From the IMG/VR virus record IMGVR_UViG_3300028008_001583, positions 1 through 59,764 of that record: a stretch of DNA of 59,764 nt. The stretch is one strand, 5' to 3'. Of this stretch, positions 581 through 53,604 are shown piece by piece (position 1 is the first letter of the stretch; every line of letters begins with the position of its first letter). The position numbers were made by a program, and so were the translations under genes. Below the pieces are notes generated by a model. It did no database searches. It saw only the letters and a list, made by a program, of their open reading frames with translations, and was not told where the DNA came from. This DNA comes from a virus. Taxonomy: Duplodnaviria > Caudoviricetes.

Positions 581-1295
581 AGCACTTATTATTCGCAGGC
601 TCCAAGTTCCGTTATCAATGGAATATGCACAATTTTGTGCAGAGTCTTGCGAAAAACATAATCTAGATTACGAATTTATTGACGCTGTTGAATTTTTAGA
701 ATGTAGAGAAGCATTTAAGTCAGTGGGCGCAAAAAAAATTAATTCCTACAAAAATAGGGCAGGACTGCATAAAATGGGAAACTGTTGCTGTCACGCTTCT
801 CATATCAAATGTTGGAAACGCATTGTAGAATTAGATGAGACTTGTATAATTCTAGAACATGATGCAGTAGTAAAAGGAGATGTGCGTAACATAGAAATTC
901 CTGATATGGTTACTACTACTTTTGGACACCGTATTCAAAATATTGATGACTATACTCCTCCGCACGAAGCAACAAAATTAGTAAGAATTAAAAGAGCATT
1001 AGGATGTCATGCTTATGCACTTACTCCCAAAAGTGCTGAATGGTTATGGGAAGATGCTAGAGTTGGCGTAAAACTTGAGTTAGATTATTATCTTATGATT
1101 AATCCGCCAACTGTATTGCCTTTATATGTTTGCGAACCCCCGCAAGTTGTAGGATGGGAAAGAGCTTCAACAACAAGATTTACTAAAGACAACCAAACTC
1201 CAACGGCACAAATATTTACTGAGATTAATAATCAACATCCTGACTCTATTACTGAAGGTTGGAAAAAAGGATATAAACCTCAAAAAAGTGGTTGA
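564..1295 (+). CDS. Glycosyltransferase family 25-like (start uncertain: TTG 564 or ATG 618)
   Basis: FIDAV, GNCCCHASHIKCWKRI, IILEHDA and HAYALTP match GT25 motifs. Confidence 0.75.
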   Translation: MNKISKALIIRRLQVPLSMEYAQFCAESCEKHNLDYEFIDAVEFLECREAFKSVGAKKINSYKNRAGLHKMGNCCCHASHIKCWKRIVELDETCIILEHDAVVKGDVRNIEIPDMVTTTFGHRIQNIDDYTPPHEATKLVRIKRALGCHAYALTPKSAEWLWEDARVGVKLELDYYLMINPPTVLPLYVCEPPQVVGWERASTTRFTKDNQTPTAQIFTEINNQHPDSITEGWKKGYKPQKSG

Positions 1296-23015: not shown

Positions 23016-23043
23016 TTAGTAATAAAGGACACTAGATGATTAA
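22995..23043. repeat. Perfect 15-bp inverted repeat enclosing the -10 box, RBS and start codon
   Basis: TTAATCATCTAGTGT (22995-23009) / ACACTAGATGATTAA (23029-23043). Confidence 0.9.
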
Positions 23044-23617
23044 AAATTTATTTCCAACTCCAGTAAAATTTTCTAATTTAACACTATCGACAGCTCTTTT
23101 ACAACAAGAAGTAAAAGAGCTGTTTTCTCTTGGCTACGGTAGTGATTTAAAAAGCGGAGTAAACGGAACGCGACTAGATATAACAAATGAGTTGTTAGAA
23201 GAAAAAAAGCCGCAAACTATTATTAAACTACTAACACACATACAAGAAGAAGTTTATAACTATTGCAAAGAAGTCAATATCAAACCACAGTATATAACAC
23301 AATCGTGGATAAATGTAAACCCAAAAAATTCTATTAATGTAAGACATAGTCATCCAGGAAGTGTGCTAAGTGGAGCATACTATATGAAATATCCTACAGA
23401 TGCAAACAGTCCTTTAAGCTTTTATCGCAGCAGAGAATTTTCAGATTATGGGTGGAGCTCAATGTCTTTAGATCAAAATATTGAGCTGCAATCAATTTTT
23501 AAGTATTTTCCTGTTGACAATGATCTAGTTATTTTTCCTAGTTTTGTAGAACATGATGTATTGCCTAATCAGAGTAACGAAGACAGGATTAGTTTATCCT
23601 TTAACACTTCACCGTAG
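23036..23617 (+). CDS. Putative 2OG-Fe(II) oxygenase (TIGR02466-like)
   Basis: SWINVN...HSHPGSVLSGAYY...LVIFPSFVEHDV..N....RISLSFN. Confidence 0.85.
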   Translation: MIKNLFPTPVKFSNLTLSTALLQQEVKELFSLGYGSDLKSGVNGTRLDITNELLEEKKPQTIIKLLTHIQEEVYNYCKEVNIKPQYITQSWINVNPKNSINVRHSHPGSVLSGAYYMKYPTDANSPLSFYRSREFSDYGWSSMSLDQNIELQSIFKYFPVDNDLVIFPSFVEHDVLPNQSNEDRISLSFNTSP

Positions 23618-24652: not shown

Positions 24653-26455
24653 ATGTCATCAGGATACATTTTAGGAATTTCAAGAGGCCATAATGCAGGC
24701 GTATGTCTACTTAAAGATGGCCAAATTGTTTTTGCTAGTGAAGAAGAAAGATTTACTCGTCACAAATACGACGGCGGCCCGTTGGCAACGATGATGAAAG
24801 TAAAAGAATACACTGATAAAATTGACGCTATTGTTGTGTGTCATACTACAGATTTAAAAGATGGACCTAAGATAGAATATACTGGTGATAATCTTTATTC
24901 TGGATTAGCTAGAAAAATGGGGTTGATTGATCGAAAAGCTGATATACATAGACACCCGCAGTGTATAGACGTCTCTAATCTTCACCATAAAGTACATGCT
25001 GCTTGTGCGTTTTATCGTTCTGGGTTTGACGAAGCTGTTGCTGTCGTTATCGACGGCGCAGGGTCAGCAATGACTGGAGAGACGCAAGACGGTCCTGTAA
25101 CATTATGGGAAGTAGAAAGTATATACGATTGCTCTTATCCAGACAATATTAAAACATTATATAAACATTATGGTTGTAGAGATCCTATTGTTACTGCTAT
25201 TAATCCTAAAACTAATGGAGAACAATTTGGCGATGCACCGGGCCATACATTTACATCGGTTGTTTCAGGACATGCAGGTATTACAAAAGTCTATGAAGCA
25301 GTAACTCAGTATTGCGGATTTCAAGCAATTGAAGCAGGAAAAACAATGGGATTGTTTCCGTACGGAGCCGAAAATGAAAATATTCCTAAATTGTTTACAA
25401 CAGATACAAAAATTCCATTATCTAATCGTACTATGATAGTTCCAACATATCCAAATGGTGCTATTGTAAATCATTATAATTATGATGAATTATCGCCTAG
25501 TCCAACGGGTGACGAGACTGATTGGACCGAATACCAAAATAGAAGAGATTTAGCGTATGCTTGTCAAACACAAACACAAGAACAATCACTTGATATAATA
25601 CTTTCCGCAGTTAAAATGTCTGGTAAGAAGAAAGTAGTGTTAAGTGGAGGATACGGATTAAATTGCGTAGCAAACTACTGGTATTTGAATAGATTAAATG
25701 AAGAAGGTATCGAATTGTTTGTTGAGCCTATTTCAAACGACGGTGGAACGGCTATTGGAGCAGCTCTATTATACTATCATTCTGTAGAGCAGTCAGAGTT
25801 AAGACGACCTAGAGAGATATATTTAGGACCTCAATACAATTATACTGACGATGAAATTAATAAACTTGCCGAAGAATACAATGCAATTGTTGAAGATGCA
25901 ACAGACGAAAAAGTTATTGAGTTAATGACAAATAAAAATATTGTAGCAATGTTTCAAGGCAGAGCAGAAAATGGTCCTAGAGCATTAGGCAATAGAAGCT
26001 TAATGTTTGATCCAACATTTGAAGACGGCAAAGACTTTGTTAACGAAATTAAACGTAGAGAATATTTCCGCCCGTTTGCTGGGTCTATTCTTGCTGAAGA
26101 TGCACACGAATGGTTTGACCTACGCGGTATGGAAGATAGTCCGCATATGATGTATGCTGTTAACTGTCAGCCAGGGATTGCTGAAAAAATTCCTAGCATT
26201 ATTCATGTTGACGGAACTTGTAGGATACAAACAGTTAATGAAGAAGAAAATCCTCTTTATTATCGTGTGATCAAAGCATTTAAAGAAAAGACAGGAGTAC
26301 CAATCATCTTTAATACTAGTTTTAACCTTGGCGGCGAGCCACTAGTTGAAACACTCGAAGATGCACTTTGGACCTTAAGCGAAAGTAAGATTGAATATCT
26401 ATATTTGCCTGAATACGGAAAACTTCTTACAGTCGGAAATTGGACAATTGCTTGA
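24653..26455 (+). CDS. O-carbamoyltransferase (NodU/CmcH/TobZ family)
   Basis: EEERFTRHK, HHKVHA, VIDGAG, GKTMGL, SGGYGLNCVAN, GPRALGNRS, KRREYFRPFA, HVDGTCRIQTV, NTSFNLGGEPLVET. Confidence 0.95.
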   Translation: MSSGYILGISRGHNAGVCLLKDGQIVFASEEERFTRHKYDGGPLATMMKVKEYTDKIDAIVVCHTTDLKDGPKIEYTGDNLYSGLARKMGLIDRKADIHRHPQCIDVSNLHHKVHAACAFYRSGFDEAVAVVIDGAGSAMTGETQDGPVTLWEVESIYDCSYPDNIKTLYKHYGCRDPIVTAINPKTNGEQFGDAPGHTFTSVVSGHAGITKVYEAVTQYCGFQAIEAGKTMGLFPYGAENENIPKLFTTDTKIPLSNRTMIVPTYPNGAIVNHYNYDELSPSPTGDETDWTEYQNRRDLAYACQTQTQEQSLDIILSAVKMSGKKKVVLSGGYGLNCVANYWYLNRLNEEGIELFVEPISNDGGTAIGAALLYYHSVEQSELRRPREIYLGPQYNYTDDEINKLAEEYNAIVEDATDEKVIELMTNKNIVAMFQGRAENGPRALGNRSLMFDPTFEDGKDFVNEIKRREYFRPFAGSILAEDAHEWFDLRGMEDSPHMMYAVNCQPGIAEKIPSIIHVDGTCRIQTVNEEENPLYYRVIKAFKEKTGVPIIFNTSFNLGGEPLVETLEDALWTLSESKIEYLYLPEYGKLLTVGNWTIA

Positions 26456-27089
26456 TAAAGATATTGTCGAAGTAAGATTAGATAAATTTTTAATCTACTC
26501 AGCAAATAAACTAGACGGATACGGTTATCAGACAGCAGCTGATGCCGTATCTTGCTTTAAACACTTTTCAAAAGGCAAAAAATATAACCATTGTTTAGAG
26601 TGGTGTTCTGGCCCAGGATATTTAGGTTTTGGAACACTTAGTCAAGGCCTTACAAAAAAACTTACTTTGTTAGATATACACGAACCGAATAAATTTATAG
26701 TAGAAAAAAGTATTGAAAAAAATGATCTTAATAATTGTGCAGACTTTATTTTATCAAACAATTTTCAACAACATTTACCTAGCAGAAAATATGATTTAAT
26801 TATAGGTAATCCTCCTCATTTTTCTTTTGCTCCTACATATGGTAATATCGATCCAAACGAACATAGAAAATATCAAGACAAGGACTGGAAGATTCATAAA
26901 GATTTTTTTGACACAGTTAATGATTTTATTACCGACGATGTTGATATCATCTTAATGGAAAACACAAAGGGCAGTAATCCAGATACATTTAAAGAAATGA
27001 TCAATAGTAATAATTTAAAGATTGAAAATTATTGTCTAAGTGTAACTTATCCTAACGACATTTGGTATTTGCATGTTAAAAAAGATTAG
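26391..27089 (+). CDS. SAM-dependent methyltransferase, HemK/amino-MTase-like (true start probably near 26448)
   Basis: LEWCSGPGYLG motif I; DLIIGNPPHF motif IV. Confidence 0.8.
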   Translation: MNIYICLNTENFLQSEIGQLLDKDIVEVRLDKFLIYSANKLDGYGYQTAADAVSCFKHFSKGKKYNHCLEWCSGPGYLGFGTLSQGLTKKLTLLDIHEPNKFIVEKSIEKNDLNNCADFILSNNFQQHLPSRKYDLIIGNPPHFSFAPTYGNIDPNEHRKYQDKDWKIHKDFFDTVNDFITDDVDIILMENTKGSNPDTFKEMINSNNLKIENYCLSVTYPNDIWYLHVKKD

Positions 27090-29179: not shown

Positions 29180-32100
29180 ATGGCAAAAACACAACTAAAA
29201 AATTATGTATTTAAACCGGGTATCGGAGCAATAGATTATGTATATCCTAACGCTTATAGTTTGCTAAGTGCAAACAAAAGTTTTATACAAAAAGAAGCAA
29301 CAGCTTGGATACAAGATCAAGTAGATGCAAGTGCAACTGGATTTGTAGGATATACATATAATCAAGCAAAATGTGAAAGAGATGTAGGATACGTTGTTGA
29401 TGCATACTTAAAAGACCTGCGATACGGCGGTAATGAAAATGTAATTAAAACTATTCGGTACTATTGGGATCAAGATGTTGCACAAGTTGACGGCGACAGA
29501 CAACCTGAGATACAAACACACACTTTTATTAGTACACTAATAAGAGATTATATTTTTGCAAACAGTTTATATTCTGCTTCAAATAGCGAAGTAACACAAA
29601 CAGTAGATACAAATACTACTGTAGAAACTACAGTACAGTTTACACCTACAGATGCTAGTTACACACCAACTACGGGAGTAATGACATTAACAATCGGCAC
29701 TCATTCTCTAGCAGTAGGAGATGAAATACACATTGCTCCGGGTGCTATAACTTTTACTTGCTTGCTTGACGGCGGAGCAACAACGCACCCTTATCCTAGA
29801 GCAACAGGTGTTCCTAATGCAAAAGGAAGAGATCCGTATTATTATGCACCTTTAACAATCACATCTGTAACTGGTACTACTATTACTATGAATGTAGGAA
29901 TATCTTCAGATACTTCTGTACACTCGTTTGATAGTGCAACAACAAATGGCGTTACTTCTGGACCTAGTGCAAAGATTAATACACTAGCATTTAATACAGT
30001 TGATACAATTACAAATGGTCTTAATGGACTACCAACACTAGTTCCTACAGGAGTAGGTACTGTTAAAGTGCAAGGTAGATGGGATTTAGAGCAGATTTTA
30101 TTAGTTACAAATACAACTTCTAATGAAATTATATATAATTTTAGTTCACCTACAGCAGGCGGCTCAATAACACAAAAAACTGACGGCGTAAATAAAGATC
30201 CGGATTTTCTAAAATATCTAGAAACTACTGATGCCATTACAACACTAACGTTAAATTATAATACCCGTACACATAGCTCCACAGATGCTTTGCAAATTTT
30301 TGCAGAAGAAATAGAAAATGGTAAAAGCGTTGTAACAACAAGACCGTATGATTTTGGATCAGATGCTATTGAACGTATGCGTGTTGCACAGCCATTATCA
30401 ATGCTTGACGCTGACTTTGAGTACGGACTACAGCCTACCAAGTGGGCAGCAATTGGAACATTGCGAGGATATCCTTCAGTATACGAAGTTCCAGGTACTG
30501 ATACTCCAGTACTATCTGTTGTAACAGATGCTTCGGCAGGAACAGAAGGCATAGGCCAATCACAAATAACTGTAACAACAGTCGGGCCACACGGTTTTGA
30601 ACCAGGTACACCGATAACTATTAAAGCACTAGAAGACAGTGTTAGCGGAGCAGCTAGAGCAGAAGGTAGTTTTGTAATAGTTGAAGTCCCTACAAATAAC
30701 TCGTTTACATTTTTTGCAAAGTCAAAAGTTGGCACTGTTAATCCTACTACACTATCTACAACATATACTCAATTAAGAAAAGCAGGATTTTACACAGGTG
30801 CAAGTATTGGACAACCTGAGGTAACTGTTGTAAGTAATGGTAGTGCAGGAACACTAGTAGCAGAATTAGACATTGCTAGCGGAAGTACAGTCATACCATT
30901 TGACGGTCCGTCGCCAGAAGTTGGTGCGCCACTAGTAAATGCAAATATTCCGGAAGGTTCTCAGGTAACATCGATAATCGATACAAGTGCTGGCGGAGGC
31001 GACTATATTACTCCAGTAACAATTGCAAATATTAATCCAGGAGATCTTAGTTTTACTGTACAGGACTCAACTGGCATTGTAGATAATCTTGCTTTAGATA
31101 GAGGCGACGGTACAGCTATCTATGTAACCAGTGTTGCTGGTTCTACAGTAAATATGTCTGGGGCATTTACTGGTGCATACGTAGCTAATACTGCAAACTA
31201 TGCAATTGCACCGACCGCAATTGTATCTAGTGGTACAGGCGCCCTAGTTAATATTTCATCAGCAGGAGGAACATATACACTTGATGGATTGGCAAACCAA
31301 GGCGACAACTATCAAGTAGGAGATATATTACTCATACAAGGCAATTTATTAGGCGGTACATCTCCTACTAACGACCTTACATTAAGAGTGTTAACATTAG
31401 ATAGTGATACAGGAATAGGAACTTTAGAACTTACTGGAAATGCATTTGACGGTACTACTACTATAACTAATCTAACAGGCGTAGTCGTTGGCAACAACGG
31501 CACAGACGGCAAATTTGATATTGTTATGTTAAACAATGCATATACAGCTGATGTAGCATCACCTGATACTTCACTAGGCTATATTGTTAATGATGTTATA
31601 AAAATACCAGGAAACTTGATTGACCCTACAGCAGGAACAACTCCTGCTAATGATGCATATGTAACAGTCACTGGCATAGGCGCCGGCGGATCGATTACAA
31701 GTGTATCTGTTGACGGTACTGCACCTGATGCACAACTACAATTTTTTAACCCAACTAATTCAACTAACGGCTCAGGCAGCGGCATTATATTTACAGTATA
31801 TACTAATGGTACGACATATAGTGTCACAGTTGATCCGCTTAATCAAGGTATAAATTACTTACCTGGCAATACTATTACAGTTACTGGAGATTTATTAGGC
31901 GGCGCAACCCCTGCTAATGACTTAACAATTACTGTCGATAACGTAGGCGGTGGCGGAGAAGTTACTGCTCAATCAATTGCAGGAACTGCATATAATGGCA
32001 GATCTTCTGTAAATCTTCCAGGCAGTAATGTAGTTGGCACAGGCGCAACTTTTGACGTAGGATTAGCAGGCGGCACATATACTGTTACACTAACTGACGG

Positions 32101-35100
32101 CGGTGATAGTTATGGCGCAGGACAAGAAATACTAATTCCAGCAGGCACAACTATTCCGGGTACTAGTCCTGCAAACGATTTAACAATTGCAATTGATACA
32201 GTTGATGCAGTTGCCACTGGCACGATAGGTACAATTACCGAATCTGGCACAGCTTATGGCGGAACCGGAACATTTAATGGAGTGCCAACTACACTACAGC
32301 CGGTCTCTGGCAATAGCTTTAGTGTGAATATTAGTAGGGCCAACGGGACTTATGGAATAGCATTAGACAACGGTGGCACAGGCTATGCTATAGGAAATAC
32401 ATTTAGAATAAATGGTCCACAGCTTGACGGACTACAGCCATTAAATGACATTACACTAGTTGTTTCGAGTATCGATGTAAGTACAGGTGAAATTACAGCA
32501 TTTACAAATACATACGAAAGTGCTGCTCCTGGAGATGTATTAACACTTATTAGTACTGTTATTGTAACTGATGCTACTACAGCACCTATAACTAGATCAT
32601 CTCAAATTACTTATGGTGCATTGGCAACACTAGAAATAACACTATCTAATGCACATGGACTGGTTCCTGGTAACACATTTATTGTTACTGCTAGTTCAGA
32701 TGACGGCGTAAATAATCATGATTTAGCAGCAGGTTCGTTCTTTGTTACAGATATACCAGCTGTAAATAAACTTCGATATCAAGCAAGAACAACTGGTACT
32801 ATTGACGTAACTAGTGGAGAAATTTTAGGAATATTATATCCAAGACCTGACAGCTTCTTTGTTCACAGACCATATGACGGCGGTGTACAGTTAGGTACAG
32901 GCGGTCCACAGCATGGCGCACAAGCAATACGTCAAAGTAAAAAATATATTCGTTACCAGTCAGGTAAAGGTATTATGTATACAACTGGTGCGCTATTTGC
33001 ACCAAGTTATGATTTACGTAGCCTTACAGCCGATGATGTAGAAGTGGGAAGTTTAATCACAGTTACAACAGATGACAACGATCATGGTGTACAAGCAGGC
33101 GGCATAGTTAGAATACTAGGCGTAGAAACTCCAGGATATAACAGTGGACCACAAACTGCTGTTCCTCCTACATTTGATTATACTGTTGAAAGTGTAATAG
33201 ATGAACGCACATTTACAATACGAGCACAGCGTAGATTAGGAGCAACCACTGCTATACTAGGCTTTGGCTCACAGATGAGTGTTGTTGCTTGGCACGGTGC
33301 TACAGTACGTTCAGGTATCTTTGACGATCAAAACGGCATTTTCTGGGAGTTTGACGGCACACAAATCAGTGTAGTACAACGTACAGGCACTAGACAGTTA
33401 GCAGGTACAATTGCATTAGATATAGATGAAAATTTGGTAACTGGAACAAACACAAGATTCACAGACCAATTGAAGGCTGGAGATAGAATTATTATCAAAG
33501 GTATGACGCATGTTGTGTCACACGTAAACAGTCAAACCGAATGTACAATAACACCAGATTTCCGCGGCGTTGTAAATATCACAGGCGCAAAAGCAAACTT
33601 AATTGTAGACAAGAAAACAAAACAAAGCGATTTTAATCTAGACAGATTAGACGGCACTGGTCCAAGTGGTTACGATATCGACATTGCTAAGATGCAGATG
33701 ATTGGTATTCAATACAGTTGGTATGGTGCTGGTTTTATTGACTTTATGCTACGTGGTTCAGATGGTAATTTTGTTTTTGCACATAGAATGCGTAACTCAA
33801 ACGTAAACACAGAAGCGTTTATGCGTTCAGGTAACTTGCCTGTACGTTATGAAGTTACTAACGAAGGTCCTCCGGGCAAACTAGCAGCAGCAATGGATGC
33901 AAGTCAAGATACTGCGGTATTAACTGATACTAGTTTCTTCCCAGACTACGGCACAATATATGTCGATAACGAAATTATGAACTTTACTGGCAATAATAAA
34001 GTAGATAACATCCTAACTGGCTTAACAAGAGGAGCAACATTTTCAAACTTCCAAGCAGGTGCGACAAGATCATATACTGCAAGTGCAGCAACAACGCACA
34101 ATGACAGGACTGGTGTTGTATTGATATCGCAAACAATTACACCATTGATTAGTCACTGGGGTAGTGCGTTTATTACAGACGGCATGTTTGACGATGATCG
34201 AGGATATATTTTCTCATACGCTGAGACAGGCGTTGAAGTTAGTACTACAAAACAAAGTGCTTTCTTAATTAGACTATCTCCTAGCGTTTCAAATGCACTA
34301 GTAGGAGACCTAGGCGAAAGAGAATTGCTAAACAGAGCACAGTTACTACTACAAGGCATTGAAGTTACGTCAGACGGTGTAGATACTGGAAATAGTAATG
34401 CTCCGGTCGTGGGTGGTATTGTTATTGAAGGTGTTCTTAATCCGCAAAACTATCCACTTAATCCAGCAGATATTGGTTGGACAACATTGAGTGGTGTTGC
34501 TCAAGGTGGTCAGCCTAGTTTTGCACAAATTGCTTCAGGCGGTAGTGTTAACTGGTCAACAGGTGAAGCTGCAACAACTGCTACAGTTAGTTCTCAAGCA
34601 GCAATATCCATAAATATGGATAGTGGGCGATATAGATCTGATAGAAACCGTAATCTTATTTGGATAAATGCTAATGATTATAGAAATACATTTGGTACAA
34701 CAAGTCTGGCGCCTGTGCAAGGTAAGACAATTATAAATGCTGGCTCTTATTCAAACATACAATCAGGAACTACAATCACTGGCGGATATATGAATAACAG
34801 CGGCGATTATGGTTATTTTATATTAAGCAGAAATACTACTAATAATAACAACGATAGAATCAACGCAGCCACTGCTAATGCATATACAATACAGTCAGCA
34901 GATATACCGTTGGTTGATAGAAACTTTGCATATTTTGACAAGACAAGTTTTGATTCATCAGGCGCAAAAATAGGTACAGAATTATCCAACGGCGGCTCAG
35001 TAAGCTTTCCATCTAACACATTGATCAACAGTATAGATCTAGTAGATTTCGGCGGAACTGAATATTACGAAGTACAGTTTAACCAGTCATTTAGTGGTAC

Positions 35101-35368
35101 ACTAGCAGTGGGCACAGGCACAGTAGAATTTACGTTTGTGCAACCACCATATGCACAGCCAGGTGAAACTGTATTCTCTTTTATTGCTACACCGGGAGAA
35201 CGCTCAACGCTTGATTTATCAGAATTGAAAGAACTTACAAACACACCACTAGGTGGACGAGGAACATATCCAAATGGTCCTGATGTGCTTGCACTTAATG
35301 TTTATAAAGTTGGTGGTGTTACAGCTAATGCAAATATTATTCTAAGATGGGGCGAAGCACAAGCCTAA
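29180..35368 (+). CDS. Very large (2062 aa) virion structural protein
   Basis: G/T-rich beta repeats (G.NY..G....I.G..LGG.TPANDLTI.V); DADFEYGLQPTKW; RQSKKYIRYQSGKG lectin-like region. Confidence 0.75.
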   Translation: MAKTQLKNYVFKPGIGAIDYVYPNAYSLLSANKSFIQKEATAWIQDQVDASATGFVGYTYNQAKCERDVGYVVDAYLKDLRYGGNENVIKTIRYYWDQDVAQVDGDRQPEIQTHTFISTLIRDYIFANSLYSASNSEVTQTVDTNTTVETTVQFTPTDASYTPTTGVMTLTIGTHSLAVGDEIHIAPGAITFTCLLDGGATTHPYPRATGVPNAKGRDPYYYAPLTITSVTGTTITMNVGISSDTSVHSFDSATTNGVTSGPSAKINTLAFNTVDTITNGLNGLPTLVPTGVGTVKVQGRWDLEQILLVTNTTSNEIIYNFSSPTAGGSITQKTDGVNKDPDFLKYLETTDAITTLTLNYNTRTHSSTDALQIFAEEIENGKSVVTTRPYDFGSDAIERMRVAQPLSMLDADFEYGLQPTKWAAIGTLRGYPSVYEVPGTDTPVLSVVTDASAGTEGIGQSQITVTTVGPHGFEPGTPITIKALEDSVSGAARAEGSFVIVEVPTNNSFTFFAKSKVGTVNPTTLSTTYTQLRKAGFYTGASIGQPEVTVVSNGSAGTLVAELDIASGSTVIPFDGPSPEVGAPLVNANIPEGSQVTSIIDTSAGGGDYITPVTIANINPGDLSFTVQDSTGIVDNLALDRGDGTAIYVTSVAGSTVNMSGAFTGAYVANTANYAIAPTAIVSSGTGALVNISSAGGTYTLDGLANQGDNYQVGDILLIQGNLLGGTSPTNDLTLRVLTLDSDTGIGTLELTGNAFDGTTTITNLTGVVVGNNGTDGKFDIVMLNNAYTADVASPDTSLGYIVNDVIKIPGNLIDPTAGTTPANDAYVTVTGIGAGGSITSVSVDGTAPDAQLQFFNPTNSTNGSGSGIIFTVYTNGTTYSVTVDPLNQGINYLPGNTITVTGDLLGGATPANDLTITVDNVGGGGEVTAQSIAGTAYNGRSSVNLPGSNVVGTGATFDVGLAGGTYTVTLTDGGDSYGAGQEILIPAGTTIPGTSPANDLTIAIDTVDAVATGTIGTITESGTAYGGTGTFNGVPTTLQPVSGNSFSVNISRANGTYGIALDNGGTGYAIGNTFRINGPQLDGLQPLNDITLVVSSIDVSTGEITAFTNTYESAAPGDVLTLISTVIVTDATTAPITRSSQITYGALATLEITLSNAHGLVPGNTFIVTASSDDGVNNHDLAAGSFFVTDIPAVNKLRYQARTTGTIDVTSGEILGILYPRPDSFFVHRPYDGGVQLGTGGPQHGAQAIRQSKKYIRYQSGKGIMYTTGALFAPSYDLRSLTADDVEVGSLITVTTDDNDHGVQAGGIVRILGVETPGYNSGPQTAVPPTFDYTVESVIDERTFTIRAQRRLGATTAILGFGSQMSVVAWHGATVRSGIFDDQNGIFWEFDGTQISVVQRTGTRQLAGTIALDIDENLVTGTNTRFTDQLKAGDRIIIKGMTHVVSHVNSQTECTITPDFRGVVNITGAKANLIVDKKTKQSDFNLDRLDGTGPSGYDIDIAKMQMIGIQYSWYGAGFIDFMLRGSDGNFVFAHRMRNSNVNTEAFMRSGNLPVRYEVTNEGPPGKLAAAMDASQDTAVLTDTSFFPDYGTIYVDNEIMNFTGNNKVDNILTGLTRGATFSNFQAGATRSYTASAATTHNDRTGVVLISQTITPLISHWGSAFITDGMFDDDRGYIFSYAETGVEVSTTKQSAFLIRLSPSVSNALVGDLGERELLNRAQLLLQGIEVTSDGVDTGNSNAPVVGGIVIEGVLNPQNYPLNPADIGWTTLSGVAQGGQPSFAQIASGGSVNWSTGEAATTATVSSQAAISINMDSGRYRSDRNRNLIWINANDYRNTFGTTSLAPVQGKTIINAGSYSNIQSGTTITGGYMNNSGDYGYFILSRNTTNNNNDRINAATANAYTIQSADIPLVDRNFAYFDKTSFDSSGAKIGTELSNGGSVSFPSNTLINSIDLVDFGGTEYYEVQFNQSFSGTLAVGTGTVEFTFVQPPYAQPGETVFSFIATPGERSTLDLSELKELTNTPLGGRGTYPNGPDVLALNVYKVGGVTANANIILRWGEAQA

Positions 35369-35994
35369 AGGGCTTGTGCAAACTCCCACAAGTTATCAAA
35401 GATTAATGTTTGTTTTTTGATTTGTTTGTAGACATGTTTGTTTAATTGTTTTTCAGTTTCCAAACCATATCCAGTTCGCACTAGTATTGGCTTTGCTCCT
35501 ATTTTATGAGCTGCTTTTAGATCACTCATTTTGTCACCTACAAAAAATCCCTTAGAAAATTTTATGTACGGATGTTCTTTTTCGCATCGCTTGAACATGC
35601 CAATATTTGGTTTAGCATATACATCATTTTTTCTACTACTTGCACTGTAGTATATTGCATCAATACTAGGACATCCTGCTTGGCCTAATAAATCTAACAT
35701 CTTATTGTGTACTTGATCTACATCTCCGGGAGTCATTAACCCCTTTTCAATACCGCCTTGGTTAGTAATAACTGCTATTCTATGACCTTTTGATCTTAGC
35801 AATGCTACTGCTTCTAAACTTCCAGGAATAGGTTGAAACATCATAGGATTAGTGACGTATGTTCCTAGGTCAACATTTAATACCCCGTCTCGATCTATAC
35901 CAATCACTGGCTGATTATAATCTTCATTGACTATGTTAGACTGTGTAGTATTATTTGATTCAACAAACGAACTGTCTAGTACACTTCTAGCCAT
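35365..35994 (-). CDS. gmhB: D-glycero-D-manno-heptose 1,7-bisphosphate phosphatase (HAD); start corrected to ATG 35994
   Basis: DRDGVLN, VITNQGGI, KPNIGM, FVGDKMSDLKAA, LVRTGYG; operon context. Confidence 0.85.
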   Translation of the reverse strand: MARSVLDSSFVESNNTTQSNIVNEDYNQPVIGIDRDGVLNVDLGTYVTNPMMFQPIPGSLEAVALLRSKGHRIAVITNQGGIEKGLMTPGDVDQVHNKMLDLLGQAGCPSIDAIYYSASSRKNDVYAKPNIGMFKRCEKEHPYIKFSKGFFVGDKMSDLKAAHKIGAKPILVRTGYGLETEKQLNKHVYKQIKKQTLIFDNLWEFAQAL

Positions 35995-36382
35995 TTTCTG
36001 CCTTTTGTTTTTGACTATCACCGGGAGCAACTCTATAGTTGTCCTCTACGCTGTCTGCTGTACTAACTTCAGTAATGCTAGAACTACCTTGTAAGCAAAT
36101 AAGTCTATGAGGTTGTAATGGAGGATTGTGCCATACATCTCCTTCATTTAATTCTTTTTCATACATTCCAGCAGTAGTAGTATCAATCCATTGTACTTTA
36201 AATTTGCCAGTATTTACAAACCAAGTTTCGTCTTTTTCTTTGTGAAAGTGCATTGAAAACATTGCCCCTTCTTTTTCAAAGAACATAATTTTACCGCAGT
36301 ACTTGTCAGTAGATGCCCAAATTAATTCGTAACCCCATCCTTTTGGAACTACGCCCTGTAATCTAGTTGGTTCATTTTCCAT
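35987..36382 (-). CDS. Cupin, phosphomannose/lyxose isomerase-like
   Basis: KGWGYE, SMHFHKEKDETW, PHRL, EVST cupin metal motifs. Confidence 0.8.
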   Translation of the reverse strand: MENEPTRLQGVVPKGWGYELIWASTDKYCGKIMFFEKEGAMFSMHFHKEKDETWFVNTGKFKVQWIDTTTAGMYEKELNEGDVWHNPPLQPHRLICLQGSSSITEVSTADSVEDNYRVAPGDSQKQKAENG

Positions 36383-37190
36383 TAATATAATCCTCTATGC
36401 TTGTCCATTGCATATCTACTACACTATTTAAATTAGTTAAATTTGCACATGTGTATTCTTGATATTGACCTTTTAAATTTGCTGGCATCGGTATATAATT
36501 TATGCCAGCATTGTATTTGTTAGCAATAGTTTGTGCTACGGTTTCAAAACTTACAGGGTTGCCAGTACCAACATTGAATATACCTGATTGCCTTACATCA
36601 AACATTTTTTCGTGTAATTTGCAGATATCATCTACGCAAATAAAGTCTCGTTTATATTTGTCACTGTCTTCGAACAGTGTAATTACACTATCTTCTTTAG
36701 CTTGCTTTGTAAATTTAGTATAAGGACTCGCTTGATCGCCTTTGTGATTCTCGCCTTCGCCATACACATTGAAATATCTAAATCCTTGAATAATTATTTC
36801 AAACTCGTCTTGAAACTGTCCTAAGAATCTATCAAACAAATACTTTGACCATGCGTAAGGTGACTGCGGCAACAATGGCCCGTCTTCAGTAAAATGCTCT
36901 GTGGGTCCGTACACACTTGCACTAGATGCATATTGTAAATTAGTACCAAAGTTTTCACATACTTGTGCAAGCCTTACAGTAAACTCAAAGTTTTGTTCTA
37001 GTATTTGATTAACGTCAGTGTATGTAGTTGAACTAATTGCACCAGTATGTATGCACCAGTCGTAATCTTCTGTACTAGGGATGATACCAGGAGCCCACTC
37101 CCAGCCTTCTACTTCGTGTCCCTGTGCTTGCAAATATAATGCAATATTTGAACCAATGAATCCTTTGTGTCCTGTAACTAATATTTTCAT
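36372..37190 (-). CDS. hldD: ADP-L-glycero-D-manno-heptose 6-epimerase
   Basis: VTGHKGFIGS, GAISST, YASSASVYG, YAWSK, FRYFNVYG..E.HKG.QAS, RDFICVDD. Confidence 0.88.
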   Translation of the reverse strand: MKILVTGHKGFIGSNIALYLQAQGHEVEGWEWAPGIIPSTEDYDWCIHTGAISSTTYTDVNQILEQNFEFTVRLAQVCENFGTNLQYASSASVYGPTEHFTEDGPLLPQSPYAWSKYLFDRFLGQFQDEFEIIIQGFRYFNVYGEGENHKGDQASPYTKFTKQAKEDSVITLFEDSDKYKRDFICVDDICKLHEKMFDVRQSGIFNVGTGNPVSFETVAQTIANKYNAGINYIPMPANLKGQYQEYTCANLTNLNSVVDMQWTSIEDYINGK

Positions 37191-37816
37191 TTATTTTCCT
37201 CGAGTAGTTTTTTATATTTTTCACCCCATTGTTTTTTAAATATGGGACTTATTATATTATTATTACGTTCGTGTTCACTTTGTGGAGGCCCGCCAAATAT
37301 GTATCCTAATGTTACACGAGGCTCAACGTCATTTGTTGGCACACCTCTGTGCCACAAGTTACTAGGAAATATAACACAGCGATTATCTTTATAATCTATA
37401 TCACATATTTTTTCGCCGCCATGATCAGGAAAATCAGTCCAAAAATCCATTCCTGTGTCTCCAGAAATAAAATGTACCATAGTCCATGCTGGAGGCCCCA
37501 TATCTGCATGTACACCACCTACTAAAGTTTTTGTAGTTAGATTAAGTTGACATTGAACAAAGTGTAATGGTAGTACTTCGTCATCGTTGCTTAGTTTATC
37601 TCTAGAATCATTGAGTGCAGCAAAAGTTGCTTTGTACTCCCATGGTATTTCATGTAGACCAAATAGCGGCCATATTTTACTAAAAAAAGCGTTACCTACG
37701 TCAGGACCAACACCGTGGTGTTGACACGTTACTGGTATTGATAAAATATTTGTTTTAATAGATCTATATAACCATTCTGGTACAATATCATCGAAAACAA
37801 AAATATCACTAGACAT
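37187..37816 (-). CDS. 2OG-Fe(II) oxygenase
   Basis: HAD...W...G.G..F...NRCVIFPSNLWHRG...RVTL (HxD..H..R). Confidence 0.75.
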   Translation of the reverse strand: MSSDIFVFDDIVPEWLYRSIKTNILSIPVTCQHHGVGPDVGNAFFSKIWPLFGLHEIPWEYKATFAALNDSRDKLSNDDEVLPLHFVQCQLNLTTKTLVGGVHADMGPPAWTMVHFISGDTGMDFWTDFPDHGGEKICDIDYKDNRCVIFPSNLWHRGVPTNDVEPRVTLGYIFGGPPQSEHERNNNIISPIFKKQWGEKYKKLLEENK

Positions 37817-37830
37817 TTAAGAAATTCCTT

Positions 37831-38970
37831 TCATTTACTATTCTTTATAATCTGCGTTGTTGAATATCCGCCTACTGTAGGTATAATATGCACATCAGTT
37901 AAATCATGTCCTACAACAGTTTCAACAGTATAATCTCCGCCTTTTACAATCAAGTTAGGCTGTATATGTTTAATTAACTCATAAGGAGTATCTTGTTCAA
38001 AAACGTGAACTTCATCTACCCAAGGTAGTATAGATATCTGTTCAACACGTTTTTCTATATTGTTTATTGGACGGGCGTTGCCTTTTAGGCGCTTTACGCT
38101 TGCATCTGAATTAAGCCCAACTACAAGTTTGTCGCCTAAACTACGTGCTTCTTTTAATAAATTAAAATGTCCTGTGTGCATAATATCAAACACACCGTTT
38201 GTAAAGATTACACGTTCTTCAATATCACTGCGTGTAAGTATATGTGTACCTACGTGCTGTACTGCACGTCTAGATCCTTTAATAGCAAGTTCTAAACATT
38301 GCGTATAACCATAATTCTTAGTTAAACCGTATACAAATGCAGCTAAGAAACAATCACCTGCACCAGTAACATCTGATACTTCTACTTGTGCAACAGGCAG
38401 ATTATACTCAACACCATCTATACTAGCAAGTACATTATCACCGGCATTAGTAGTAATAATATTACCTTGCCACTGACAAAACCCAAACTTAGTAAATTCA
38501 CTGTTATTAGGTTTTACTAACCATGCGTCTTTATATTGAGTTGCATGTTCTTTAGGATCTACAATAATCTTACAATCAAACTTATTAATATGTTCAATAA
38601 TTCTTAGAGATTCGTCTAGTACACCTTTGTTATAATCACTTAATATTACATAATCGTATTGTGAAAAGTCACTACGTAATACATTTCTTAGCACAGCAGA
38701 ACCGTCTGCATCTTTGTCATCGTCTATACGTGTAATATAATGTCCGTCACATATTATTCGTGTCTTAATACTACGTGGTTGATTTGTTTCAAATAATGTA
38801 ACATCAACTCCTAGACTTTTAAGATTTTCATATACAAGTCCAGCACCACCTAATGTTTTAACTTCGTGTTGATATTTGACCACAGGTACTGGAGCCTCAG
38901 GGCTTATACGTTCTGAAGTGCCATAAATATATTTGTCAACGATTACATCGCCAAAAACTAATACTTTCAT
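37831..38970 (-). CDS. hldE: Bifunctional heptose-7-P kinase / heptose-1-P adenylyltransferase
   Basis: RISPEAPVPV, LSDYNKG, VDPK, DVTGAGD (PfkB); FTNGVFDIMHTGH, GLNSDASVKRLKG..RP, KGGDY, YSTT. Confidence 0.95.
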   Translation of the reverse strand: MKVLVFGDVIVDKYIYGTSERISPEAPVPVVKYQHEVKTLGGAGLVYENLKSLGVDVTLFETNQPRSIKTRIICDGHYITRIDDDKDADGSAVLRNVLRSDFSQYDYVILSDYNKGVLDESLRIIEHINKFDCKIIVDPKEHATQYKDAWLVKPNNSEFTKFGFCQWQGNIITTNAGDNVLASIDGVEYNLPVAQVEVSDVTGAGDCFLAAFVYGLTKNYGYTQCLELAIKGSRRAVQHVGTHILTRSDIEERVIFTNGVFDIMHTGHFNLLKEARSLGDKLVVGLNSDASVKRLKGNARPINNIEKRVEQISILPWVDEVHVFEQDTPYELIKHIQPNLIVKGGDYTVETVVGHDLTDVHIIPTVGGYSTTQIIKNSK

Positions 38971-38976
38971 AATTAT

Positions 38977-39005
38977 ATTATACGTTCTTTTGTATTATCT
39001 GTCAA
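38977..39005 (-). promoter_or_regulatory. Perfect consensus sigma70 promoter of the heptose operon
   Basis: Minus strand TTGACA, 17 bp, TATAAT; ATG follows 6 nt later. Confidence 0.9.
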
Positions 39006-39435
39006 GAAGGTTTATAGTTTGAAACACAGTTTCTAACTTTTTTAAGTTTATTTTACTTTGTAAAGTATTACGCAATCCGTGGTGTAACGGCTTTGGCCAC
39101 TTAGTAAAACTGCACCAAGCATAACCATTATGTTCGTCATTAAGAATAGGCATAAATTCAGACTGTACTACGCAAAGATATGTATGAAAATGAAAATGTG
39201 AATCAATAGAAATAAAACTTTCTAATGGGAGAGTTTTTTTAATTTCTGGTAAAAATCCTATTTCTTCTTTTACTTCTCTTTGCAAGCCTTCCCAGGGTGT
39301 TTCGGCAGCTTCGTTAGTGCCTCCTACAAGTCCCCACATATTATTACGTTTGCCGTTTGCTCTATGTAAAAAAAGAAATCTATTAGTATCTAGTGTGTAG
39401 AATAGTGCTCCACTACATGTTATTGTATTGACCAT
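38995..39435 (-). CDS. Nudix hydrolase (start probably ATG 39435)
   Basis: Nudix box G-TNEAA-E-TPWEGLQ-REVKEEIG. Confidence 0.85.
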   Translation of the reverse strand: MVNTITCSGALFYTLDTNRFLFLHRANGKRNNMWGLVGGTNEAAETPWEGLQREVKEEIGFLPEIKKTLPLESFISIDSHFHFHTYLCVVQSEFMPILNDEHNGYAWCSFTKWPKPLHHGLRNTLQSKINLKKLETVFQTINLLDR

Positions 39436-39443
39436 AACAGTAG

Positions 39444-40856
39444 TTAGCCATTCAAATCTATTCTCCATGTTCCGACTGGATATTCACCGTCTATACTTAA
39501 TAACCATTCATTGTCTTTGTACCTGTACTGAATTCCGGTATTAAGATTTGTAACAAATGTTGTATTATTAGCTTCGCTAGCATCAAAAACAATAACCCAT
39601 TTAGTACCATTCCATGCAACTATGTCGTTTGCATTAGCTACTAAATTGCTGTTGTCTGCATTTTTCCATGCAGCACTGCCTTCTCCAGTAGGTGCATCGC
39701 CTATATTGTCTAGAAGTAATAGTCTAAGCCCTGTAACTTTAATATCAGTAGGATCAAAATTCAAAGGATTTATTATATAATCAACAGTAGTTTTGCCGTC
39801 AATTACAGTATCTGTTGGAAAAGTATCTACATCAAAGTTTATTTCAATCTTGCCCTCGTCAAAAGGATTCAAAACAAATGTTCCAGTAACTGTAACATTA
39901 CTATCTAAATTATTAAAATAGATTCTACTTACATCGGCGTTGTACACTCCTGGATGTGCTTCAAATATTTCACGCCACGATTTGGCACCTACCATACCAT
40001 TGTGTATTAATTGTGCGCAACTGCTTTCTAGATACACGCCATATTGTTTATAATTTACATTAGCCATCTGATCAGCAGACAGTGTTTTAGCAACACGGTC
40101 TGCATCATTTTCTGATGTTATGCCACTGACAAAATCTGTGTATTGATTATTTTGCGGTCTACTAACTCCATCTTCAATAGTGCCTCTAGTTTCGTCAAAC
40201 ATACTTGTAATAATATTTGTAATAACGCCCATCTTCTTAACTTTAGTTGGAGGACTAATGTATATTGGAATGCTAAAAGTAAGCGTAGCAATATCAATTT
40301 CACTGTCTACACCTACCGGAATACTTCTGTTAGACCATTGTACATTTTCTAAATTTACAACTGTAATACTTGTCCAGTCAATAAAATTATCTGTAGTCTG
40401 CATTTCTAAACTTGGATTGAATAATACTAATATTTGTTCTAGTATCTGTAATTTTTGATCTGTGTTTGAAGCCCATATATCTGCGTTTACTCGCATCATA
40501 TACGGTGTAGGTATCAGTCTTTCAACTGTGTAATTTTTTCCTTGATAGTTAAGATACTCGTTATTTTCTTCATCGTATGCTCGTTCTCTAATGTTAACAG
40601 AACGTGTATATGTTGCATCAGTGAGCCTATCTCTGTCTAATTCAAGACCAGTGAGATATACAGCAATGCGAGGAGCACTAGGTAATTTATTTTCACTATT
40701 TTCTCTAATAATATTTGCTACTTGGCGTGTTAGATCTCCGTAGGTAACCGGTACATCTTTGGTAGCACCTTTTCCGTCTTTTACAGGAAAGTTACTCAGT
40801 ATACGCATCATTTGCGTAGTGTATCTTCTTATTTGGCCATCGTAAAAATGCAGCAT
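39444..40856 (-). CDS. gp15: Tail completion/sheath stabiliser, T4 gp15-like, with C-terminal extension
   Basis: HFYDGQIRRY, VPVTYG, PRI, PTPY, LQILEQILVLFNP. Confidence 0.75.
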   Translation of the reverse strand: MLHFYDGQIRRYTTQMMRILSNFPVKDGKGATKDVPVTYGDLTRQVANIIRENSENKLPSAPRIAVYLTGLELDRDRLTDATYTRSVNIRERAYDEENNEYLNYQGKNYTVERLIPTPYMMRVNADIWASNTDQKLQILEQILVLFNPSLEMQTTDNFIDWTSITVVNLENVQWSNRSIPVGVDSEIDIATLTFSIPIYISPPTKVKKMGVITNIITSMFDETRGTIEDGVSRPQNNQYTDFVSGITSENDADRVAKTLSADQMANVNYKQYGVYLESSCAQLIHNGMVGAKSWREIFEAHPGVYNADVSRIYFNNLDSNVTVTGTFVLNPFDEGKIEINFDVDTFPTDTVIDGKTTVDYIINPLNFDPTDIKVTGLRLLLLDNIGDAPTGEGSAAWKNADNSNLVANANDIVAWNGTKWVIVFDASEANNTTFVTNLNTGIQYRYKDNEWLLSIDGEYPVGTWRIDLNG

Positions 40857-42883: not shown

Positions 42884-43444
42884 GTGTTACCTAAATTATT
42901 AGTTGTTGGTCACGGCCGTCATGGCAAAGATACTGTGTGTGAAGTACTAGAAGATTACGGATATACCTTTCAGTCTAGTTCTAAATTTTGTTCAGAACTT
43001 TTTATCTTTAATGATTTAAAAGACAAGTACAAATATAAAGACGAAGAAGACTGTTTTGAAGATCGGCACAATCATCGTACTGAATGGTACGATATGATTC
43101 ATAACTATTGCAAAGATGATCTAGCACGCCTTGGTCGCAATTTGTTTGCAGAACATGATATCTACTGTGGTCTACGTAACAAGCGTGAATTCTTTGCAAT
43201 GCAAAATGAACAAATCTTTGACTACGCTATTTGGGTAGACCGCACAGATCATTTGCCTTTAGAAAGCAAAACTAGTATGAGCATAGAACAATGGATGTGC
43301 GATTATACTATTGATAATAATGGCGACTTAGCAAGACTAAAACTAAATGTTGATATTCTTATGCGTACTATCTTTAGAAGTCTGGGCGTAAGTCTCCCTG
43401 TTTCCACCGCACTCCGGTTTTCTGAAGGATACGCTGGCAGTTAG
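42884..43444 (+). CDS. Deoxynucleoside monophosphate kinase-like (T4 gp1 type); start GTG 42884 or ATG 42878
   Basis: N-terminal P-loop VGHGRHGKDT; DYTIDNNG. Confidence 0.7.
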   Translation: MLPKLLVVGHGRHGKDTVCEVLEDYGYTFQSSSKFCSELFIFNDLKDKYKYKDEEDCFEDRHNHRTEWYDMIHNYCKDDLARLGRNLFAEHDIYCGLRNKREFFAMQNEQIFDYAIWVDRTDHLPLESKTSMSIEQWMCDYTIDNNGDLARLKLNVDILMRTIFRSLGVSLPVSTALRFSEGYAGS

Positions 43445-43709
43445 CACATACTGTTTTTAAGTTGCTAGGTCGACAATTACTCAAGTCTCCGTCAATATGA
43501 AATACATTAAATTGCTCTTCGTGATTTGATTTAAACCCGCACTTCTCGCACTCATCTTTTTTTACGTAACCTCGTTGCCTCCACAAAGGATTATCATAAT
43601 TTAATCCGTGCTTCAAACATCTTTCACAAAGCTTTCTATAATAAGTTTTGCCATCTTTTTTATAATTTATAGCCGCTGGACGTTGCTTACATTGACATAA
43701 AGGTCTCAT
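43374..43709 (-). CDS. Zn-finger/HNH-like protein
   Basis: CQC...CERC; CEKCG...HIDGD..N...NL..VCANC. Confidence 0.75.
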   Translation of the reverse strand: MRPLCQCKQRPAAINYKKDGKTYYRKLCERCLKHGLNYDNPLWRQRGYVKKDECEKCGFKSNHEEQFNVFHIDGDLSNCRPSNLKTVCANCQRILQKTGVRWKQGDLRPDF

Positions 43710-52428: not shown

Positions 52429-53604
52429 ATGTCAAACTACTTTTTTAGCGAAAGCGATCTTACTCCGTTATATAATGCAGTTCCATCATTTATAGAAGAG
52501 ACTGTCTCGTTGTGCCATGTATGCTACAATCATTTGCCTGCATTAAAATATGAAAAAGATGGAAAATTATATCTTGTAAAATACTGCAAAGATCACGGTA
52601 TACATCATTATGTTATTGAAAATGATATAGACTTCTATCAAAGTTTAAATTGTGAATACAACAAGCCTTGGGACTTTAACGGCGGTGTTATGATCGAAGG
52701 AAGTGATAGATGCAATTTAGATTGTCCGCATTGCTATCATATTCCAAATAATAAAATACAAGATCCTGCACAAGAACTTTTAATGTCTCAAGTTGCAGAT
52801 ATTGAATCTAAAATGAGATGGCCGGGAGATCCCTTTTGGGTTGTGCTTTTAGCAGGTGCAGAACCTACTCTAAGAAAAGACTTTCCGTACCTATTAGAGA
52901 GAATAAAAACAGACTATAATAATACTATACAATGCTATGTAATGTCAAACGGAATAAAATTTGAAGATGTAAATTTTGTAAAATCGTCAAAATCTGCAGG
53001 ATTAGATAGTGTGTGCTTTGGTTTAAATCATCCTACATATAATAACAATATGATAATTAGAAACAAACAAGAACGTGCAGTTTATAATATTTTAGAAGAA
53101 GACTTAGGACTAAATTATCTTAGTTATACTATGAATAATTTTAACGAATTAAATGATATTATGCAAGAAATTTTATATAAAGGATGGACACCAACACATT
53201 TTAGAATTCGTTACGGAAGTGATATTGGAAGAAATACTGGACAAGAACGATTGTTTTTAAGTGATGTCTTTAAAAGTGTACAAAGATGGTGTCAAGATAA
53301 TAATAAAAGTTTTGAAATTATTGAACCGGCTGATAACAACATATATCACATAATGGTTAAAGTAGAAGACAAATATATAAGATTAATACAGTGGTGTGAC
53401 GAATACGATATTGATATGGAAAGTTTGAAATCAGGACCTTGGAGTGATTTTACGCCAGGCTCTATAACTAATTTTTTAAATCAAATTATTAGAAGAAATG
53501 CGTGGAAAAACAAAGGATTAACTCTTTTAGATAGCCCCCCAGAAAGATATCACATGAGACAAATACCAATAACTGATAAACTAGATTTAAAAAAGCTAAT
53601 ATAA
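52429..53604 (+). CDS. Radical SAM protein with N-terminal Cys/His metal-binding domain
   Basis: CNLDCPHCY (CxxxCxxC), GAEPT, SNG; N-terminal T.SLCHVC...K.C.DHG. Confidence 0.85.
   Translation: MSNYFFSESDLTPLYNAVPSFIEETVSLCHVCYNHLPALKYEKDGKLYLVKYCKDHGIHHYVIENDIDFYQSLNCEYNKPWDFNGGVMIEGSDRCNLDCPHCYHIPNNKIQDPAQELLMSQVADIESKMRWPGDPFWVVLLAGAEPTLRKDFPYLLERIKTDYNNTIQCYVMSNGIKFEDVNFVKSSKSAGLDSVCFGLNHPTYNNNMIIRNKQERAVYNILEEDLGLNYLSYTMNNFNELNDIMQEILYKGWTPTHFRIRYGSDIGRNTGQERLFLSDVFKSVQRWCQDNNKSFEIIEPADNNIYHIMVKVEDKYIRLIQWCDEYDIDMESLKSGPWSDFTPGSITNFLNQIIRRNAWKNKGLTLLDSPPERYHMRQIPITDKLDLKKLI

Follow-up and report, generated by a model that had tools for sequence, protein, structure and literature searches.

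The SIS-fold isomerase GmhA is, to our knowledge, treated as the universal entry to heptose synthesis. The enzyme is a drug target and acts upstream of the innate-immune agonist ADP-heptose. The conversion of a ketose into a manno-configured aldose, which is the chemistry needed on sedoheptulose 7-phosphate, is also performed by the type II phosphomannose isomerases (PMI) and by D-lyxose/mannose isomerases. A full-text literature search, covering few subscription journals and no supplements, returned no paper linking a cupin to sedoheptulose-7-phosphate isomerisation, and excerpts of a pelagimyophage paper list rfaE among phage LPS genes with no mention of a cupin (PMC7029224).

The DNA analysed in this study (the window, 59,764 bases) is an entire linear viral record, from a large phage of marine origin, and is estimated by CheckV to be 18% complete. 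Among its genes are those for a T4-like baseplate, fibre, sheath, tube and terminase. Its large terminase is nearest to that of the Pseudomonas jumbo phage PA5oct group (54% identity), and genomes of its lineage are about 330-350 kb in size; public assemblies include contigs of 349-360 kb with close homologues. On the minus strand, the gene for a gp15-like sheath stabiliser is followed downstream by a block of heptose genes, which is made up of these features:

38995..39468, minus strand: NUDIX hydrolase, directly upstream of hldE.
38977..39005, minus strand: candidate sigma-70-type promoter (TTGACA-17-TATAAT, 12/12 consensus match), just upstream of the hldE start.
37831..38970, minus strand: HldE-like fused kinase (PfkB)/adenylyltransferase, 379 aa.
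37187..37816, minus strand: 209-aa protein between hldE and hldD, with a weak PHROG match to 2OG-Fe(II) oxygenases.
36372..37190, minus strand: HldD-like ADP-glyceromanno-heptose 6-epimerase (SDR), 272 aa.
35987..36382, minus strand: single-domain cupin of 131 aa, ATG start, metal site H45, H47, E52, H92; candidate sedoheptulose-7-phosphate isomerase.
35365..35994, minus strand: GmhB-like HAD-IIIA heptose-1,7-bisphosphate phosphatase, with its likely ATG at 35994 and an open frame reaching a TTG at 36030.

The best NCBIfam model is a heptose enzyme for each of the HldE-, HldD- and GmhB-like proteins, all scoring under the curated equivalog cut-offs. The HldE-like fusion of a PfkB kinase and a cytidylyltransferase-like domain matches NF008454 with E 4e-81 and 272.9 bits (cut-off 521), the HldD-like SDR matches TIGR02197 with 226.8 bits (cut-off 274.6), and the GmhB-like HAD-IIIA phosphatase matches NF006506 with 127.9 bits (cut-off 178). 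The kinase, adenylyltransferase, 7-phosphatase and 6-epimerase of an ADP-L-glycero-beta-D-manno-heptose cassette are encoded together in the window. A hexose has no stereocentre at C6, so the HldD-like 6-epimerase makes sense only for a heptose. A SIS_2 search of the whole window gave no match. The statement of a first-pass annotation of this DNA, that every ADP-heptose step except gmhA is present, therefore holds for the window, and since the record is 18% complete this absence covers about one-fifth of the genome. The same annotation had the cupin gene overlapping both hldD and gmhB, which is confirmed. The cupin ATG lies within the final hldD codons (ATGGAAAATGA), an overlap of 11 nt, and the gmhB ATG at 35994 overlaps the cupin stop (ATGGCTAG) by 8 nt, or by 44 nt if gmhB translation begins further upstream, at the TTG at 36030. 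No Pfam family matched the 209-aa protein, a 2OG-oxygenase-like and optional member of the cassette found in 9 of the 80 related viral loci described below.

The cupin itself passes the Pfam cut-offs of Cupin_2 (PF07883, 29.7 bits against 27.2) and Cupin_1 (PF00190, 26.5 bits against 22). It is matched by neither of the SIS models of GmhA, PF13580 and TIGR00441, being a cupin barrel instead, and the Pfam search at E<=0.01 gave no match to PF01050, the type II PMI family, whose gathering score is not reached. What we take to be cupin motif 1 reads G39-x5-H45-x-H47-x4-E52-x6-G59, and motif 2 reads G81-x5-P87-x4-H92. The metal site, His45, His47, Glu52 and His92, is complete, and the protein is presumably metal-dependent. 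An AlphaFold (AF2) model built on 76 sequences has a pLDDT of 93 and is predicted to be an all-beta barrel. The family comprises 2416 cluster representatives at E<=1e-3 in a library clustered at 50% identity.

When the family profile was run over picocyanobacterial genomes, many matches were found in open frames of 457-517 aa, with E values of about 1e-6 to 1e-8. This is the length of the bifunctional ManC, and one such frame was confirmed as ManC, with a PMI cupin joined to a nucleotidyltransferase. In a two-sequence hmmsearch, the family profile aligned to the PMI domain of this picocyanobacterial ManC (residues 368-464) with 30 bits and E 3.5e-11. The positions common to both are W16, G17, K31, H47, E52, W54, G59, H92 and E105, which are nearly all of the near-invariant residues of the cupin family. 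The family profile thus shares with a genuine ManC PMI both its metal ligands and its conserved active-site residues, with a Gln in ManC where the window cupin has H45; some members of the cupin family are without H45, E52 or H92. Several relatives also pass the PF01050 cut-off of 23.6 bits: P0133 with 31.0, P0208 with 26.3, P0163 with 24.8 and the cupin of locus L192 with 43.1 bits. A further relative, P0176, passes PF07385 with 22.5 bits, and an Atlas look-up of the family returned these same two families as minority labels. With ligands shared with the ManC domain and several members over the PF01050 cut-off, the earlier label "PMI-like" is well founded.

Longer forms of the cupin are fused to enzymes of the same kind as its neighbours. 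Relatives with 58-71% identity are joined to a PF01467 heptose adenylyltransferase in 9 of 14 longer forms, and in 8 of 13 in a second search; the distant members P0213 and P0250 are PF01467 adenylyltransferase fusions as well. In P0133 and P0211 the cupin is fused to HAD phosphatases. No kinase fusion was found among the longer forms in a word-limited search.

At least 598 cupin loci were confirmed in IMG/VR, and in the 80 closest of them the neighbours of the cupin were identified by tblastn. HldD was found beside the cupin in all 80 loci, HldE in 78, the NUDIX hydrolase in 74 and GmhB in 62, and the gene order of the cassette is kept in 62-80 of the 80. The two loci without HldE (L050 and L084) are among the shorter or end-cut ones. 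Since 2416 representatives match and an HldD-like neighbour is present in 80/80 related viral loci, the cupin is not a chance open reading frame. More distant cupins, 34-42% identical to that of the window, occur in 35 phage records, all of them T4-like cyanophages or marine single-cell viral contigs. A homologous cassette of adenylyltransferase, PfkB kinase, a 107-116-aa protein and cupin is carried by the cyanophages P-SSM2, S-CAM1, Sf-CH8, S-SSM7, S-SM2, P-TIM68 and S-T4, the P-SSM2 cupin being PSSM2_312. A nucleotide-sugar epimerase is part of it in five of the seven, with none annotated in the stretch examined of Sf-CH8 or S-T4. The cassette travels with further tailoring genes, namely a carbamoyltransferase, a methyltransferase and 2OG oxygenases.

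The 107-116-aa cyanophage protein (T4-GC 306) bears the public label "phosphoheptose isomerase", which is repeated in a passage of a genome announcement (PMC7378029). It was considered as the missing isomerase and rejected. The protein gave no SIS or other Pfam match, but matches the HAD phosphatase family TIGR01689 (E 1e-8 to 1.5e-6) and a "capsule biosynthesis protein" in the PDB (9iqw, E 1e-10). It is therefore the small HAD phosphatase of the cassette and not its isomerase.

The first-pass annotation had named two findings that would speak against a GmhA-replacing role: a gmhA elsewhere in the genome, and routine co-occurrence of gmhA with the cupin. SIS_2 searches of whole records gave no match in 5 cultured cyanophage genomes, in 50 records made up of 49 fragments related to the window and P-TIM68, or in 5 further related fragments that are 16-46% complete. 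A SIS gene is thus absent from 6 cultured cyanophage genomes with a homologous cassette and from 54 fragments of the window's lineage, the largest of which is 46% complete. In a tblastn search with E. coli GmhA, 13 of 50,697 phage records matched, none of them among the 35 cupin-bearing records. For the converse search, IMG/VR was seeded with an alignment of true GmhA, which yielded 138 confirmed stretches, of which 80 were kept, and both sets of loci were searched with local HMMs. Each set contains one of the two genes by design, so the informative figures are those for cross-occurrence alone. GmhA was found in none of the 80 cupin-seeded viral loci and the family cupin in 2 of the 80 GmhA-seeded loci, so that the two genes occur together in 2/160 overall and not routinely. 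When both sets are restricted to loci with a kinase or adenylyltransferase hit, 78 have the cupin only, 26 have GmhA only and 1 has both; that is, the cupin is present in 1 of the 27 GmhA-seeded loci with a heptose kinase or adenylyltransferase.

Both exceptions, L210 and L263, come from a single lineage, in which a SIS GmhA lies near a GHMP kinase, with a strong family cupin about 5 kb away. A small PF01467 transferase is located directly before the cupin in L263 and about 3.4 kb upstream of it in L210, and no PfkB kinase was found in four records of this lineage, all of them fragments. Since L210 and L263 carry both genes, the cupin can coexist with GmhA. The mutual exclusivity that the earlier annotation had proposed to check is hence strong but not absolute, complete in the cupin-seeded loci and broken twice in the GmhA-seeded ones.

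Whether the step could come from the host depends on the phage group. In a census of 201 Cyanobiaceae genomes, a GmhA-like match at E<=1e-3 was missing from 166. The other 35 have true homologues of GmhA; six of these were aligned and share 41-49% identity with E. coli GmhA. No GmhA-like match was obtained in four of five named Prochlorococcus and Synechococcus genomes, and the lipopolysaccharide of Synechococcus is described as being without heptose in a section of a review (PMC4377996). Of the 28 picocyanobacteria that have an HldE-type adenylyltransferase, 24 also have a SIS GmhA, and the remaining 4 showed no strong cupin. The host version of the pathway thus uses GmhA and the phage version would use the cupin. 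The hosts of the cyanophage versions are for the most part unable to supply the isomerase step. For the window's lineage the situation may differ. No psbA was found in 20 records related to the window, and the nearest terminase, that of the Pseudomonas jumbo phage PA5oct, points to a possible proteobacterial host equipped with a GmhA of its own. The case for this lineage is one of parsimony: four of five activities are encoded in one translationally coupled block, so the fifth was likely brought too.

On balance, we infer that the phage encodes a self-contained ADP-heptose pathway in which the cupin serves as the sedoheptulose-7-phosphate isomerase. The cupin would be a metal-dependent aldose-ketose isomerase of the type II PMI kind, converting sedoheptulose 7-phosphate to D-glycero-D-manno-heptose 7-phosphate, a step usually performed by the unrelated SIS-fold GmhA. 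The first-pass annotation had called it a new sedoheptulose-7-phosphate isomerase class. The lack of a SIS gene with the cassette in the records examined and the kinship with PMI tip the scales slightly in favour of that proposal, which is, however, better put as a new specificity among PMI-type cupin isomerases, non-homologous to GmhA. We see about an even chance for the wider reading, namely that the cupin is a second, non-homologous class of this isomerase with which marine phages, P-SSM2 and S-SM2 included, make ADP-heptose from the host pentose-phosphate/Calvin-cycle pool, even in hosts without a heptose pathway. The heptose would then probably be further tailored, by carbamoylation or methylation, for a phage-specific glycan.

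A fold search with the model of the cupin gave as its top match the cupin domain of CapF (2zkl; Z 15.2, 119 residues, rmsd 3.8), which we take to belong to a nucleotide-sugar epimerase/reductase. The cupin could accordingly be a keto-sugar epimerase similar to CapF, RmlC or WbuC, a nucleotide-sugar modifying enzyme that acts at a later step, together with the HldD-like SDR, on ADP-heptose, while the isomerase step is left to host GmhA or to an unrecognised enzyme. The constant presence of an SDR next to the cupin (80/80 loci), the joint occurrence with GmhA in L210 and L263, and the carbamoyltransferase, methyltransferase and 2OG oxygenases that accompany the cassette fit such a role, as does a weak, sub-threshold resemblance of the window cupin to WbuC (19.8 bits, cut-off 42). 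Still, we consider it unlikely. Further matches include quercetinase (Z 13.8), KdgF (13.6), T. kodakarensis PMI (13.2), D-lyxose isomerases (12.9 and 12.7), a Bacillus putative CDO (4qm8, 12.5, level with dozens of other cupins) and the archaeal cupin phosphoglucose isomerase (12.4). Many unrelated cupin functions are thus tied at Z 12-15, with oxalate decarboxylase, quercetinase and KdgF standing level with the PMI and the D-lyxose isomerases. Fold alone does not separate isomerases from epimerases or dioxygenases, and sequence is the more telling guide to the kinship of this cupin. The family profile scores 15.5 bits against CapF (E 0.1), whereas it reaches the 30 bits given above for the PMI domain of ManC. 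The fusions of the family are to adenylyltransferases and HAD phosphatases, not to SDRs. A later-acting cupin would moreover leave the six cyanophage genomes with no first step, in a host group mostly without GmhA.

The kinship with type II PMI domains, together with the relatives exceeding the PF01050 cut-off, raises a second alternative, in which the cupin is an ordinary PMI that makes mannose 6-phosphate from fructose 6-phosphate, or an isomerase acting broadly on sugar phosphates, and feeds a mannose-derived product. Close relatives are indeed named "mannose-6-phosphate isomerase(-like)" by JGI. Strong relatives (E<=1e-14) are present in 5 picocyanobacterial genomes, 4 of which have an annotated context. 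In three of these the cupin lies beside NeuB, a HAD phosphatase and a CMP-sugar synthetase; in the fourth, a HAD phosphatase, an aldolase-like protein and a kinase/nucleotidyltransferase are found alongside. The NeuB-type clusters are presumably KDN-type, with a pathway that, as we understand it, starts from mannose 6-phosphate, the product such clusters would be expected to need. For the same reason this context fits a sugar-phosphate isomerase role for the family. However, the operon in the window has neither a phosphomannomutase nor a PF00483 mannose-1-phosphate guanylyltransferase. The neighbours translationally coupled to the cupin are heptose-type enzymes, its linkage to HldE and HldD is kept in 78-80 of 80 loci, and an HldD-type 6-epimerase has no role on a hexose. 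A plain PMI is therefore unlikely, and we place it slightly behind the later-acting epimerase. Under a third alternative, which we consider highly improbable, the cupin is no sugar enzyme at all, but a dioxygenase or a small-molecule-binding protein that is no more than a neighbour in the operon. In favour of this are the PHROG and RefSeq label "cysteine dioxygenase" and the top sequence matches in the PDB, oxalate decarboxylase and quercetinase, obtained through the generic cupin motifs that dominate the PDB sequence and profile searches. Against it, neither Pfam nor NCBIfam gave a cysteine-dioxygenase family at E<=0.01, and the translational coupling and heptose-enzyme fusions kept across distant phage lineages would be hard to explain.

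If the sedoheptulose-7-phosphate isomerase assignment is correct, a non-homologous cupin in place of GmhA would be a clean case of analogous enzymes, and pathway predictions that read "no gmhA" as "no heptose" would need revision. Two misannotations that have been passed on in model cyanophages would also be corrected. The cyanophage cupin is publicly labelled "cysteine dioxygenase" (as is phrog_7851) or "putative nucleotidyltransferase", and the small HAD phosphatase is the one labelled "phosphoheptose isomerase". Abundant ocean phages would then synthesise a sugar not produced by most of their picocyanobacterial hosts, leaving one to ask what these phages decorate with heptose.

Among the known systems, GmhA (SIS fold; PF13580, TIGR00441; EC 5.3.1.28) is identical to the cupin in proposed reaction and in place in the pathway, and viral cassettes with the same kinase, adenylyltransferase and phosphatase have one or the other, in the proportions given above. 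The two are unrelated in ancestry, GmhA having the SIS alpha/beta fold and the cupin a beta-barrel with a His-His-Glu-His site and presumably metal dependence. The type II PMI, the C-terminal cupin of ManC, AlgA and XanB (PF01050), has profile-level homology to the cupin and shares with it the WG motif, K31, the metal ligands, W54 and E105. It performs the ketose to manno-aldose chemistry proposed for the cupin and, like members of the cupin family, is fused to a nucleotidyltransferase of its own pathway. In contrast, the window cupin is a free-standing protein of 131 aa, scores under the PF01050 cut-off and has a His where ManC has a Gln as first ligand, and its partners are heptose enzymes and a PF01467 transferase rather than a PF00483 one. 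The D-lyxose/D-mannose isomerases (PF07385; 2y0o, 7nzo, 3kmh) are cupin aldose-ketose isomerases of manno/lyxo-configured sugars, as proposed here. They match the cupin with Z 12.7-12.9, with 125 residues aligned at 22% identity to 3kmh and a profile E of 5.8e-6 to 2y0o, but they are larger proteins that act on unphosphorylated substrates, and the window cupin reaches 17.1 bits against the PF07385 cut-off of 20.8. The Thermococcus kodakarensis protein (7zvy, 7zvm) is, like the window cupin, a small single-domain cupin, of about 110 residues and deposited as a phosphomannose isomerase; it aligns over 106 residues, although its sequence similarity to the family profile is marginal (E 0.36). The C-terminal cupin of CapF (2zkl), the best structural match, is likewise tied to an SDR in sugar-nucleotide synthesis. 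Its sequence similarity to the cupin family is negligible, however, and CapF is fused to its SDR, whereas the cupin family is fused to adenylyltransferases and HAD phosphatases.

Among the viral loci examined, two candidate isomerases, an SIS-type GmhA and a relative of the window's cupin, were found together only in one lineage, represented by the GmhA-seeded loci L210 and L263.

L210:9983-10570, SIS GmhA; 15362-15748, family cupin
L263:9881-10468, SIS GmhA; 15558-15926, family cupin

In this lineage GmhA is accompanied by a GHMP kinase, and the cupin is located approximately 5 kb away from it. In L263 a small PF01467 transferase comes immediately before the cupin, and in L210 a PF01467 gene precedes the cupin by about 3.4 kb.

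A cyanophage gene, T4-GC 306, is annotated as phosphoheptose isomerase, a label that also appears in a genome announcement.

L001:5655-5999, PSSM2_311 of P-SSM2, and its homologues in the cyanophage cassette loci L002-L007; 107-116 aa

This assignment was ruled out, since the protein has no SIS match and instead matches TIGR01689 (E 1e-8) and PDB 9iqw (E 1e-10). On sequence grounds, the product is a small HAD-type phosphatase.

In cyanobacteria, one Cyanobiaceae genome, G065, encodes a true HldE scoring above the TIGR02199 cut-off. No GmhA-like match was obtained in this genome, and its sole cupin match is weak and distant. Three further Cyanobiaceae genomes (G094, G120, and G193) contain an adenylyltransferase-like match without GmhA. 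Stronger cupin relatives were found in four picocyanobacterial contexts.

G065:C1:2779918-2780343, locus in G065
L192:9888-10208, cupin relative
L193:9325-10248, cupin relative
L194:9766-10221, cupin relative
L196:929-1360, cupin relative

Three of the four reside in clusters of NeuB, HAD phosphatase, and CMP-sugar synthetase genes. One relative adjoins a GatZ-like aldolase and a kinase/nucleotidyltransferase, and one carries a fused, unassigned N-terminal part of 170 aa.

The heptose operon of the window is bordered by the following features.

29180-35368 (+), Thr/Gly-rich structural protein, 2062 aa
38977-39005 (-), sigma-70 consensus match TTGACA-17-TATAAT, 12/12
38995-39468 (-), NUDIX hydrolase

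The NUDIX hydrolase gene, directly upstream of hldE, is kept in 74 of 80 related loci, and its product could act on an ADP-sugar or another nucleotide. The sigma-70 site, a putative promoter by consensus match alone, falls within the end of this gene just before hldE. The gene of the Thr/Gly-rich protein is convergent with the operon and adjoins it in 62/80 related loci; speculatively, this protein is a candidate glycosylation target.

Two further genes lie elsewhere in the window.

43374-43706 (-), small ORF with an HNH_3 match of 23.0 bits, below the cut-off of 24.8
52429-53601 (+), radical SAM protein with HMPTM-type zinc ribbon, just upstream of the large terminase

The small ORF may encode a homing endonuclease; it runs on the opposite strand and is flanked by the head-tail adaptor region and the tail sheath gene.

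The window also contains sugar-tailoring genes.

564-1292 (+), family 25 glycosyltransferase
23036-23614 (+), 2OG-Fe(II) oxygenase
24653-26452 (+), Nol-like carbamoyltransferase
26391-27086 (+), small-domain methyltransferase

Because the carbamoyltransferase, oxygenase, and methyltransferase are found with the cyanophage cassettes as well, they hint that the heptose carries a modification.
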